Origin: Escherichia coli
Lineage (GTDB): Bacteria; Pseudomonadota; Gammaproteobacteria; Enterobacterales; Enterobacteriaceae
DNA length: 64,000 nt
Direction: 5' to 3' (one strand)
NCBI RefSeq assembly: GCF_046105845.1
Contig: NZ_CP151004.1
In this document: piece by piece, positions 59,571 through 63,781 of the stretch
Layout: the number at the start of each line of letters is the position of its first letter
How positions within the stretch are numbered: the first letter of the stretch is position 1
Notes under the pieces: model-generated
The model's input: the letters and a program-made list of their open reading frames with translations, nothing else
Told to the model about the DNA's origin: nothing
Database searches by the model: none
Program-made: the position numbers and the translations under genes

Positions 59571-59756
59571 ATGCTGATTCTGACTCGTCGAGTTGGTGAG
59601 ACCCTCATGATTGGGGATGAGGTCACCGTGACAGTTTTAGGGGTAAAGGGCAACCAGGTACGTATTGGCGTAAATGCCCCGAAGGAAGTTTCTGTTCACC
59701 GTGAAGAGATCTACCAGCGTATCCAGGCTGAAAAATCCCAGCAGTCCAGTTACTAA
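59571..59756 (+). CDS. csrA: Carbon storage regulator CsrA
   Basis: 61-aa [64 protein letters not shown]. Confidence 0.98.
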
Positions 59757-60071
59757 TCTTTCCGCGTCTCATCTTTATCGGTGAGACGCACCCTCAAAAT
59801 TTCTTCTTCACTCCATTGTCTTTTCGCTTTACTCCCGTTCATTCAACTTAAGTCTCCATTTTTTTGCATTACTGCTATCTGACAGACCTCCGTTTTTCTG
59901 TTGATAAAACACTCTTTTTGACGTTTTTACAGACTAATTGAGCGTGAAGTGTGCAAACGATAAAAGTGTGGGAAAAATTGTTTGACTTATAAGTCTCAGA
60001 AAGTAATATGTGCGCCACGCAGCGACGATGAGCGATAAACAAGTTCTTCGAAGCACTCGTAAGAGGCGTGT

Positions 60072-60164
60072 GGTGAGGTGGCCGAGAGGCTGAAGGCGCT
60101 CCCCTGCTAAGGGAGTATGCGGTCAAAAGCTGCATCCGGGGTTCGAATCCCCGCCTCACCGCCA
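60072..60164 (+). tRNA. serV: tRNA-Ser (anticodon GCU)
   Basis: 93-nt sequence GGTGAGGTGGCCGAGAGGCTGAAGGCGCTCCCCTGCTAAGGGAG…CGCCTCACCGCCA with long variable arm, GCT anticodon and encoded CCA. Confidence 0.95.
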
Positions 60165-60167
60165 TTT

Positions 60168-60244
60168 GCATCCGTAGCTCAGCTGGATAGAGTACTCGGC
60201 TACGAACCGAGCGGTCGGAGGTTCGAATCCTCCCGGATGCACCA
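60168..60244 (+). tRNA. argV: tRNA-Arg (anticodon ACG), copy 1
   Basis: 77-nt GCATCCGTAGCTCAGCTGGATAGAGTACTCGGCTACGAACCGAGCGGTCGGAGGTTCGAATCCTCCCGGATGCACCA; 3 nt after serV. Symbol assigned by position. Confidence 0.95.
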
Positions 60245-60378
60245 TATTCTACATATTTTCAGCGATGAAGGTATGGAAGAGGTGGCGGTAATAACCGCAG
60301 GCACTAGGGAGGATAACGTTGCTTTAGCAACGGCCCGAAGGGCGAGCCGCAAGGCGAGTAATCCTCCCGGATGCACCA
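60245..60378 (+). repeat. 134-bp element A ending in a duplicate of the tRNA-Arg 3' end
   Basis: Begins TATTCTACATATTTTCAGCGATGAAGG…, contains a small hairpin CGTTGC-TTTA-GCAACG, and ends …AATCCTCCCGGATGCACCA, identical to the last about 19 nt of the preceding tRNA-Arg. Confidence 0.7.
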
Positions 60379-60442
60379 TCTCTTACTTGATACGGCTTTA
60401 GTAGCGGTATCAAAAAATCTGCAGTAAAGTAAGTTTCCCGAT

Positions 60443-60519
60443 GCATCCGTAGCTCAGCTGGATAGAGTACTCGGCTACGAACCGAGCGGTCGGAGGTTCG
60501 AATCCTCCCGGATGCACCA
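60443..60519 (+). tRNA. argY: tRNA-Arg (anticodon ACG), copy 2
   Basis: Identical 77-nt sequence; symbol assigned by position. Confidence 0.95.
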
Positions 60520-60582
60520 TCTCTTACTTGATATGGCTTTAGTAGCGATATCAATATCAGCAGTAAAATAAATTTTCCCGAT

Positions 60583-60659
60583 GCATCCGTAGCTCAGCTG
60601 GATAGAGTACTCGGCTACGAACCGAGCGGTCGGAGGTTCGAATCCTCCCGGATGCACCA
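60583..60659 (+). tRNA. argZ: tRNA-Arg (anticodon ACG), copy 3
   Basis: Identical 77-nt sequence; 63-bp spacer from copy 2. Confidence 0.95.
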
Positions 60660-60722
60660 TCTCTTACTTGATATGGCTTTAGTAGCGATATCAATATCAG
60701 CAGTAAAATAAGTTTTCCCGAT

Positions 60723-60799
60723 GCATCCGTAGCTCAGCTGGATAGAGTACTCGGCTACGAACCGAGCGGTCGGAGGTTCGAATCCTCCCGGATGCACCA
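60723..60799 (+). tRNA. argQ: tRNA-Arg (anticodon ACG), copy 4
   Basis: Identical 77-nt sequence; 63-bp spacer from copy 3. Confidence 0.95.
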
Positions 60800-60932
60800 T
60801 ATTCTCCGAAATCTTCAGCAATAAAGGTATCGAAGAGGTAGCGGAATTAACCGCAGGCACCAGGGAGGATAACGTTGCGCCAGCAACGGCCCGAAGGGCG
60901 AACGCCAGTGAGTCATCCTCCCGGATGCACCA
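60800..60932 (+). repeat. 133-bp element B, paralogous to element A, ending in a duplicate of the tRNA-Arg 3' end
   Basis: TATTCTCCGAAATCTTCAGCAATAAAGG…GGAGGATAACGTTGCGCCAGCAACGGCCCGAAGGGCG…TCATCCTCCCGGATGCACCA; roughly 80 percent identical to element A by eye. Confidence 0.7.
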
Positions 60933-61079
60933 TCTTCTCCAAAAAATTTCCTTCAAAAATATCTCATTTCTAAATAACTACTTTATCCATTTCCTGAATA
61001 TTCTTCTCCTTCGCCATCAGCGACAAAATCAAGCAATTACGCTAAAGTAGCGTCATATTTTTCGACTTGCGAGAAGACC

Positions 61080-63708: not shown

Positions 63709-63781
63709 AAAAAGGCCACTCGTGAGTGGCCAAAATTTCATCTCTGAATTCAGGGATGATGATAACAAATGCGCGTCTTTC
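63709..63781 (-). ncRNA. micA: Small regulatory RNA MicA (SraD)
   Basis: Minus strand reads GAAAGACGCGCATTTGTTATCATCATCCCTGAATTCAGAGATGAAATTTTGGCCACTCACGAGTGGCCTTTTT, recognised as MicA with its terminator hairpin; lies between gshA and luxS as in E. coli. Confidence 0.85.

Follow-up and report, generated by a model that had tools for sequence, protein, structure and literature searches.

The serV-argVYZQ tRNA operon of the window (the whole 64-kb stretch of Escherichia coli DNA analysed here) carries two structured elements, A and B, which are already known: as judged from sequence comparison, they are orthologues of raV and raQ of E. coli K-12, two of the catalogued tRNA-linked repeats (TLRs), with 97.8% identity between element A and K-12 raV and 94.7% identity between element B and K-12 raQ. 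It is quite probable that both are TLR modules that are co-transcribed with the operon, cut out by tRNA-maturation nucleases and reshuffled by recombination. Repeats of this type were reportedly first described by Egan and Landy in 1978 as the 178-bp repeats of tyrT. [quoted passage not shown] The names raV, raZ and raQ are found in the strain table of the same work, and TLRs are there without a known function (PMC8144298). Elements A and B share with the catalogued members the position and orientation within a stable-RNA operon, the copy of a tRNA 3' end and sequence homology. The features of the locus are the following.

59982..60009 (+), promoter-like site of the serV-arg tRNA operon, TTGACT-16-TAATAT (consensus scan)
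60072..60164 (+), tRNA-Ser(GCU), serV (ARAGORN; Rfam tRNA, 56.8 bits)
60168..60244 (+), tRNA-Arg(ACG) copy 1, the argV equivalent (ARAGORN, Rfam)
60245..60378 (+), element A, short-type tRNA-linked repeat of 134 nt, the raV orthologue
60379..60442 (+), ordinary 64-nt inter-tRNA spacer that resumes past element A, homologous to the 63-nt spacers
60443..60519 (+), tRNA-Arg(ACG) copy 2 (ARAGORN, Rfam)
60520..60582 (+), 63-nt spacer between copies 2 and 3
60583..60659 (+), tRNA-Arg(ACG) copy 3, with no element after it where K-12 has raZ (ARAGORN)
60660..60722 (+), 63-nt spacer between copies 3 and 4
60723..60799 (+), tRNA-Arg(ACG) copy 4 (ARAGORN, Rfam)
60800..60932 (+), element B, short-type tRNA-linked repeat of 133 nt at the operon end, the raQ orthologue

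The promoter-like site at 59982..60009 is a consensus match only, and its placement upstream of serV fits the operon. The four tRNA-Arg(ACG) genes are identical according to both ARAGORN and Rfam; ARAGORN also returned a spurious minus-strand call at 60188-60259, which extends 15 nt into element A. The preliminary description of this DNA, made from its letters alone, had reported elements of about 133 bp after tRNA-Arg copies 1 and 4, similar but not identical and each ending in a tRNA-derived stretch, with 63-bp inner spacers, and all of this is borne out: A (134 nt) and B (133 nt) begin at the base right after the CCA of their tRNA-Arg gene, in the orientation of the operon, their last 18-19 nt are tRNA-derived, and the inner spacers (60520-60582 and 60660-60722) measure 63 nt. 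Six copies of the 18-mer ATCCTCCCGGATGCACCA are present in the 64-kb window, namely in the four tRNAs and at 60361-60378 and 60915-60932, with 0 copies expected from 100 shuffles. The terminus of element A, AATCCTCCCGGATGCACCA, equals the tRNA-Arg end at 19 of 19 positions, and that of element B, CATCCTCCCGGATGCACCA, at 18 of 19. The resemblance between the two elements (83.7% identity overall) spans their full length, so that it goes beyond the tRNA-derived end: the 5' domains are 81% identical, the parts with stem and cassette 82% and the last 18 nt 100%.

Within the elements, a 5' domain with two small hairpins (H1 and H2 in element A) is followed by a long closing helix, whose 3' strand is the tRNA-end copy, and by the cassette of hairpins that this helix encloses.

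60257..60270 (+), element A hairpin H1, UUUCA-GCGA-UGAAG, with a GNRA-type loop (single-sequence fold)
60285..60298 (+), element A hairpin H2, GCGG-UAAUAA-CCGC (RNAalifold)
60301..60314 (+), element A closing-helix 5' strand, GCACUAGGGAGGAU, predicted to pair with the copied tRNA 3' end
60317..60355 (+), element A cassette with the hairpins CGUUGC-UUUA-GCAACG, CCC-GAA-GGG and GCC-GCAA-GGC
60360..60378 (+), last 19 nt of tRNA-Arg as copied in element A, from the T loop (in part) through the T-stem and acceptor 3' strands to ACCA
60857..60870 (+), 5' strand of the closing helix in element B, GCACCAGGGAGGAU
60873..60898 (+), hairpins of the element B cassette, CGUUGC-GCCA-GCAACG and CCC-GAA-GGG
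60914..60932 (+), tRNA-Arg 3' end as copied in element B, CATCCTCCCGGATGCACCA, 18/19

The calculated minimum free energies are −56.3 kcal/mol for element A (z −5.65) and −49.0 kcal/mol for element B (z −3.97). RNAalifold and the single-sequence folds concur on the closing helix and the hairpins, and paired cells amount to 92.4% versus 28-48% in slid controls. Since the antisense strands fold about equally well (z −3.9 and −4.4), and the G-U and A-C exceptions to pairing are roughly balanced, neither the folding energy nor the wobble pairs prove that RNA is the selected form. Compensatory changes are found in H2 and in the third cassette hairpin: the H2 stem, GCGG/CCGC, is replaced by GCGA/UCGC in Klebsiella and Enterobacter, with both sides changed in 7 sequences. 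A hairpin is also found at the H1 position in other genera, with another stem sequence, and a remnant in two E. coli strains has a compensatory version of it, CAUCA-GUGA-UGAUG. The closing helix and the first two cassette hairpins are near-invariant in the Arg set and therefore bring no covariation evidence of their own. The strand GCACUAGGGAGGAU resembles the acceptor 5' strand of tRNA-Arg joined to the T-stem 5' strand; when duplex energies were calculated, the 3' end of the element's own tRNA was the best partner of the 5' strand in 8 of the 11 elements, which represent 7 tRNA types. These energies replaced an ungapped anchored count of complementary bases, which was noisy because of G-rich strands and bulges.

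The cassette is what ties the Arg elements to the rest of the family. The CGUUGC/GCAACG hairpin, a CCC-NNN-GGG hairpin and a small variable hairpin are present in all examined TLRs that follow tRNA-Arg, Lys, Tyr and Pro, and the first two of them are present in the 5S-linked member of rrnB, which is located between the terminators T1 and T2. Around the cassette the closing helix has the tRNA-end copy as its 3' strand and a 5' strand that matches the cognate tRNA. Overall, the cassette was found after six tRNA species (including Arg(ACG), Arg(CCG), Lys, Tyr and Pro) and after 5S rRNA, in Enterobacterales and in Oceanospirillales. A scan of genome contigs with a 16-nt cassette pattern gave at least 120 matches, which are mostly due to chance in GC-rich genomes, and about 20 informative loci stand among the matches listed, too few for statistics on the distribution. 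Model R1 gives scores of 152 bits for element A and 134.4 bits for element B. The matches of the Arg-built covariance model in K-12 include the elements of the lysT operon (58-66 bits), that of proK (40.5 bits) and the tyrT repeats (25-29 bits), and at E 0.01 the model did not reach the 5S-linked RrA, RrB and RrF.

The closest architecture is that of the short-type Lys elements of the K-12 lysT-valT-lysW-valZ-lysYZQ operon, which are the best non-Arg matches of the Arg model. As in the Arg elements, the closing-helix 5' strand runs directly into GGAU-AACGUUGC, and inter-tRNA positions inside the operon are occupied; however, they carry a copy of the tRNA-Lys 3' end, are about 82-100 nt long and have a shorter, different 5' domain. 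With RrA, RrB and RrF the Arg elements share the series AACGUUGC-GAAG-GCAACGG-CCC-GGA-GGG and the copy of the 3' end of the upstream stable RNA at the terminus, whereas the host RNA of these repeats is 5S rRNA, two intrinsic terminators (rrn T1 and T2) flank them, and both their processing and their in vitro binding to Hfq and CsrA have been demonstrated (PMC8144298).

The preliminary description had also pointed to the tRNA-linked repeats of tyrT, and this kinship is supported by the common cassette and by sub-threshold matches to the Rfam family RtT (RF00391). Element A scores 33.9 bits (E 2.3e-5) and element B 28.4 bits (E 4.9e-4), compared with a gathering score of 45 bits and with 133-137 bits for the K-12 tyrT copies, and both matches are confined to model positions 50-130, i.e. 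to the 3' half. Thus, the Arg elements are relatives of RtT and not members by Rfam's criterion. The features in common with the 178-bp tyrT repeats (rttR and tpr in K-12) are the CGUUGC hairpin, the CCCGAAGGG hairpin, the small hairpin and GAGUAAUCC, along with the post-tRNA position and a closing helix that uses the copy of the cognate tRNA 3' end; the two internal hairpins that RtT has in addition and the tpr-like open reading frame are missing from the Arg elements, and the 5' domain is another one. Protein coding of the tpr type was considered for A and B and rejected: their open reading frames have no conserved start, lie in frames that differ between the two elements, and for the most part extend across tRNA genes.

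The expectation that K-12 would show the same arrangement was right in that the arrangement is conserved rather than novel, but not in the number of elements, K-12 having three (raV, raZ and raQ, after argV, argZ and argQ) and the window two. The csrA-serV-arg-yqaB locus, the orientation, the start past the CCA and the 18-19-nt tRNA-Arg end are all the same in the K-12 repeats. The strain under study differs from K-12 in that raZ is missing after the third tRNA-Arg, where a plain 63-nt spacer is found instead, and element B differs from K-12 raQ by a G-to-A change that weakens its hairpin H1. Seven E. coli strains exhibited five arrangements, with four tRNA-Arg genes in every one; among 5426 complete genomes, 3653 contain a raV-type 5' domain, and the positions of the elements vary among Salmonella, Klebsiella, Enterobacter and Pantoea. 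Compared with K-12 raV, the counterparts in other genera are 86-100% identical in the closing-helix 5' strand and 78-93% in the cassette. Outside Salmonella, identity is only 25-62% in the 5' domain and 56-75% in the ordinary spacers of the operon, so that helix and cassette are conserved much better than the spacers beside them. The near-invariance of the cassette suggests that a partner may recognize it in a sequence-specific manner, a point against the processing path proposed below, which includes no such partner.

With these features, a path can be proposed for the formation of a discrete RNA. The module of approximately 134 nt, starting right after the CCA of tRNA-Arg, would be transcribed within the serV-argVYZQ operon and would fold into the two small 5' hairpins and then the long helix with the copied tRNA 3' end as its 3' strand. 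Because the 5' strand is the complement of the copied 3' strand, the helix would imitate the acceptor/T-arm 'top half' of tRNA-Arg, with the conserved three-hairpin cassette in the place of the T loop. From the tRNA-like 3' end of the module and from its trailer, which is of the same type, we infer its release by the tRNA-maturation nucleases: RNase E would cut just past the CCA, 3' exonucleases would take part and RNase P might act at the mimic helix, so as to free the RNA and leave the leader of the next tRNA unchanged. Recognition by RNase P is uncertain because the acceptor-like part of the helix is interrupted by two mismatches in the Arg elements, and those of Tyr, Ser and Pro have a shorter version of it. 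For comparison, the mapped ends of 5S-linked RrB lie 3 nt past the 5S rRNA and 3 nt past the repeat, with RNase E as the proposed nuclease (PMC8144298). Of the two origins that the preliminary description had put forward, old att scars or RNA by-products of operon processing, the latter is the better guess, with excision as the step that we infer. Modules are gained, lost and moved within the operon, possibly by recombination, either of the repeated tRNA-plus-spacer units with one another or of the 19-bp direct repeats, which would explain the presence of two modules here and of three in K-12.

The released RNA could also be thought of as a trans-acting sponge or protein titrator, like RrA, RrB and RrF or the leuZ 3'ETS, that would bind Hfq, CsrA, a tRNA-processing enzyme or tRNA itself. 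The strong conservation of the cassette and closing helix, the location of the operon directly downstream of csrA, the several GGA motifs within the elements and an output that would track tRNA transcription are in line with such a role, as are the processing and the in vitro Hfq and CsrA binding of the 5S-linked relatives (PMC8144298). However, the predicted probability of CsrA binding is below 0.01 for all 19 tRNA-operon TLRs (PMC8144298), many E. coli strains have no element at one or two of the positions, and this role is without a known target or partner. Moreover, a K-12 strain deleted for all 22 TLRs has been constructed (PMC8144298), so that any function is dispensable in the laboratory. 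A trans-acting role of elements A and B is therefore considered improbable.

It is very unlikely that A and B are tRNA-Arg pseudogenes that decayed after tandem duplication and of which the 3' end alone is still recognizable, perhaps through gene conversion. They do lie in a tandem tRNA array with a 3' end identical to that of the tRNA, and a manual comparison of the closing-helix 5' strand GCAyCAGGGAGG revealed 10 of 12 positions equal to the acceptor 5' and T-stem 5' strands of tRNA-Arg. This match, however, is automatic, given the complementarity of the strand to the copied 3' strand, and the cassette has no counterpart in tRNA, is common to the elements of unrelated tRNAs and of 5S rRNA, and varies less from genus to genus than true spacers do, contrary to the expectation for a pseudogene. 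As to tRNA-like structure in the elements, for which the preliminary description had proposed a check, a helix mimicking the acceptor/T-arm is predicted, but the tRNA models detect no cloverleaf. Specifically, ARAGORN found none within A or B and the Rfam tRNA model gave 0 matches even at E up to 10, and the reading of either element as a tRNA gene or pseudogene was rejected.

Least credible is the other origin of the preliminary description, that of old att scars. In this scenario, a phage or island would have integrated in the T loop/3' end of tRNA-Arg, duplicated approximately 19 bp and, after the loss of most of its length, left a 115-bp remnant between att repeats. tRNA 3' ends are classic integration sites, and the elements resemble attL/attR at tRNA genes in their exact direct repeat of 18-19 bp that begins in the T loop, with the module right after the CCA and a normal spacer resuming afterwards. 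They differ in being without integrase or cargo and in sitting between tRNA genes inside a single operon: no integrase or foreign DNA is found from csrA to yqaB, and E. coli, Salmonella and Klebsiella have the genes in one and the same order, csrA-serV-arg-yqaB-yqaA-gshA. Furthermore, the structured cassette recurs across tRNA types and 5S rRNA, and the elements contain a strand complementary to the repeat that changes with the type of tRNA, a feature for which an att scar has no need. A blastn search of a phage collection with element A returned four records, three of them mis-filed Salmonella chromosomal contigs and the fourth an unverified 7-kb 'phage' contig; the 17 plasmid matches are all non-mobilizable, those inspected being chromosomes or chromosomal fragments filed as plasmids, and the exact cassette pattern had 0 matches in 2.9 million viral contigs. 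The attachment-site interpretation was rejected on these grounds.

The window itself matters little, for it contains orthologues of named K-12 repeats, and what sets it apart from K-12 is a polymorphism common among strains. RefSeq leaves the elements unannotated, and sequence scans will therefore keep 'rediscovering' them. The rrnB T1-T2 region, TLR included, is a fragment of many cloning vectors. The family poses a modest open problem, being strongly conserved with no known function for its tRNA-operon members. As a tentative and rather doubtful proposal, TLRs may form a single functionally selected class of RNA, possibly mobile, in which a cassette on a mimic of the acceptor/T-arm of the host RNA would be recognized by some factor. 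The latter could be an enzyme of tRNA maturation or quality control, or else a recombination or retro-type activity by which new tRNA 3' ends would receive the cassette. Compatible with this proposal are the near-invariance of the cassette from one host RNA to the next (six tRNA species and 5S rRNA, in two gammaproteobacterial orders), the closing helix that tracks the host tRNA, and the fact that no function has been assigned since 1978. For the design of experiments on the family, the guides are the helix that tracks the host tRNA, the conservation of the cassette above that of spacers, and the position at the operon end, which is the most constant.

The region studied is the serV-arg tRNA operon, flanked by csrA and yqaB, in a window that is E. 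coli-like (top match 99.5%, at alaS-csrA). The tRNA genes, assigned with ARAGORN and Rfam, and the two repeated units, elements A and B, are arranged as follows.

tRNA genes and elements of the serV-arg operon
60072-60164, tRNA-Ser(GCU), serV
60168-60244, tRNA-Arg(ACG), copy 1
60245-60378, element A, 134 nt, directly after tRNA-Arg copy 1
60443-60519, tRNA-Arg(ACG), copy 2
60583-60659, tRNA-Arg(ACG), copy 3
60723-60799, tRNA-Arg(ACG), copy 4
60800-60932, element B, 133 nt, directly after tRNA-Arg copy 4

The four tRNA-Arg(ACG) genes are the same in sequence, and the 18-mer ATCCTCCCGGATGCACCA, of which no copy is expected by chance in the window, occurs six times: in these four genes and at 60361-60378 and 60915-60932. 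The preliminary description of the elements was correct, including the 63-nt inner spacers, and the likeness of A and B is not confined to the tRNA-derived end (83.7% identity over the full length, with the final 18 nt identical). A 64-nt spacer homologous to the inner ones picks up directly 3' of element A; with the 19-bp copy of the tRNA end, this makes each element resemble an insertion of approximately 134 bp that duplicated 19 bp of the tRNA 3' end. RefSeq carries no annotation of these elements. A tRNA-Arg(tcg) called by ARAGORN at 60188-60259 (− strand), antisense to copy 1, is spurious and, like sub-threshold Rfam matches to 'Plastid-ycf2' and 'Plastid-psbl-rps4' antisense to all four tRNA-Arg genes, an artefact of tRNA palindromy. 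The MicA small RNA (63710-63781, − strand; 83.9 bits, gathering score 41) is an expected neighbour in the gshA-luxS region.

Elements A and B are already known, as tRNA-linked repeats (TLRs) catalogued in K-12. The corresponding operon of K-12 MG1655 contains three of them, 3' of argV, argZ and argQ; element A is 97.8% identical to that following argV and element B 94.7% identical to that following argQ. The names raQ, raZ and raV in a published strain table (PMC8144298) identify the arg-operon members as a catalogued feature. The family was first observed at tyrT (Egan and Landy 1978), and the 1999 catalogue of Rudd comprises 22 TLRs at ten K-12 loci, each ending in 18-19 bp identical to the 3' terminus of the tRNA or 5S rRNA that precedes it, with no function known 'thus far' (PMC8144298). 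The arrangement is, as had been suspected, conserved rather than novel, but not identical in K-12, which has three elements against two in the window.

RNAalifold and single-sequence folds agree on the structure of the Arg elements. A leader (UAUUCUCC in most genera) is followed by predicted hairpins H1, with a GNRA-type loop, and H2 (GCGG/CCGC in Escherichia and Salmonella, GCGA/UCGC in Klebsiella and Enterobacter), and then by a predicted long closing helix, GCAyyAGGGAGGAU paired with AUCCUCCCGGAUGC, which encloses the three hairpins of the cassette and beyond which ACCA forms a 3' tail. At 10/12 positions the 5' strand of this helix is identical to the acceptor and T-stem 5' strands of tRNA-Arg, so that the helix mimics that half of the tRNA in which acceptor and T-arm are coaxial, the cassette taking the place of the T-loop; this likeness is an automatic result of the strand being complementary to the copied tRNA end and provides no independent evidence for tRNA descent. 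In the Arg-element alignment 92.4% of cells are paired, versus 28-48% with partners slid. H2 and the third hairpin of the cassette show two-sided changes; its first two hairpins and the closing helix are near-invariant within the Arg set. The helix is variable between tRNA types, and in 8/11 elements (seven tRNA types) the most stable duplex of the 5' strand is with its own tRNA's 3' copy. The antisense strand folds about equally stably, so that the assignment of strand and molecule type rests on the place of the elements inside a tRNA operon, where they are necessarily transcribed.

Taking K-12 raV as reference, four genomes from outside Salmonella (Enterobacter, Pantoea and two Klebsiella species) gave identities of 86-100% for the closing-helix 5' strand, 78-93% for the cassette and 94-100% for the 3' tRNA-end copy, compared with 25-62% for the 5' domain (the upstream part with H1 and H2) and 56-75% for the ordinary short spacers of the operon. 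With identities above those of 5' domain and spacers, helix and cassette are thus kept by purifying selection or steady homogenization.

The best-supported reading is that the elements are co-transcribed, structured spacer modules. The element would be transcribed as part of the serV-arg operon and, as its end copies the tRNA 3' end and trailer, the tRNA-maturation nucleases should excise it, by analogy with the 5S-linked relative RrB, whose ends map 3 nt past the 5S and 3 nt past the repeat and for which RNase E maturation was proposed (PMC8144298). A trans-acting regulatory RNA is possible, though without support for the Arg members; an earlier functional claim for rtT has been retracted, and a strain lacking all 22 TLRs has been constructed (PMC8144298). 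The 5S-linked relatives bind CsrA in vitro; tRNA-operon TLRs are predicted non-binders (PMC8144298). csrA lies immediately upstream of the tRNA operon in E. coli, Salmonella and Klebsiella (window 59700-60071) and several GGA motifs occur within the Arg elements, a conjunction that is probably coincidence.

The suggestion of old integrase attachment scars fits the geometry of the elements but is not supported: neither integrase nor foreign DNA is present, gene order is kept across genera, the elements sit within an operon, and the cassette is found with 5S as well as with different tRNA types. Those phage and plasmid matches that were examined proved to be mis-filed chromosomal contigs, except one unverified 'phage' contig, and a scan of viral contigs for the cassette gave zero matches. 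The 'phages' collection includes contigs from whole genomes of Salmonella, and entire chromosomes or pieces of them are filed under 'plasmids', among them a 14-kb K. pneumoniae record with csrA, serV-arg and yqaB; matches there can mimic mobile-element links. An origin as decayed tRNA pseudogenes is argued against by the lack of a cloverleaf with ARAGORN and the Rfam tRNA model and by a shared, well-conserved cassette. Protein coding was rejected, reading frames over the elements being inconsistent and without conserved starts.

Number and position of the elements vary among strains, with four tRNA-Arg genes retained throughout.

Elements by E. coli strain
This window and 2012C-4221: after tRNA-Arg copies 1 and 4
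K-12 and SCEC020001: after copies 1, 3 and 4
Ecol_AZ146: after copy 4 only
CEC13002: after copy 4; copy 3 is followed by a 39-nt remnant
F5446: after copy 1, a CEC13002-type remnant after copy 3, and a shortened element after copy 4

The raQ-type copy-4 element of F5446 has lost the stretch between two GCACCA direct repeats in a clean deletion, and the 39-nt remnant retains just the leader and an H1 hairpin whose stem carries a compensatory change (CATCA-GTGA-TGATG). Of 5426 complete E. coli genomes, 3653 have the raV-type 5' domain. Salmonella, Klebsiella, Enterobacter and Pantoea have elements after other tRNA-Arg copies, at times with truncated tandem partials; the last tRNA-Arg is followed by one in all eight genomes compared. 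Exchange between repeated tRNA-plus-spacer units, together with deletion from one 19-bp repeat to the other, would be sufficient for these patterns. A 150-nt spacer after the first tRNA-Arg of K. pneumoniae and K. aerogenes, with cassette-like pieces (GCAGCGGCCCGCAGTGCGAGGC...CGAGTCAC) and a terminal sequence unlike the tRNA-Arg 3' end, may be a decayed or retargeted element.

The likeness to the tyrT repeats was borne out. The Rfam RtT model (RF00391) matches elements A (33.9 bits, E 2.3e-5) and B (28.4 bits, E 4.9e-4) just over its 3' half and under its gathering score of 45, whereas the four tyrT copies of K-12 reach 133-137 bits. Common to both is the cassette, AACGUUGC-loop-GCAACG, G, CCC-GAA-GGG, CGA and a small hairpin, after which GAGU(A/C)AUCC continues into the tRNA-specific end. 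A covariance model trained on 17 Arg elements from eight genomes found A and B as its sole matches in the 64-kb window, and scored the E. albertii orthologue at 119 bits, the four short Lys elements in the lysT operon of K-12 at 58-66, Pantoea and Klebsiella Lys elements at 38-47, the proK element at 40.5, a Marinobacterium Arg(CCG) element at 36 and the tyrT repeats at 25-29. The short architecture is that of Arg(ACG) and lysT-operon elements; the long one (Tyr, Ser, Pro, lysV/lysQ) has two extra internal hairpins. In rrnB the stretch from terminator T1 to T2 contains the first two hairpins of the cassette and, after them, a copy of the 3' end of 5S. Long-type elements (K-12 serX, proK, lysV, rrnB) have an intrinsic-terminator-like hairpin and T run between stable-RNA gene and cassette, which would thus need read-through to be transcribed, unlike the mid-operon Arg elements, which have no such hairpin. 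Finally, cassette-bearing elements follow tRNA-Tyr in Amphritea and tRNA-Arg(CCG) in Marinobacterium, both Oceanospirillales, so that the family reaches beyond Enterobacterales, with a host tRNA that varies with lineage.
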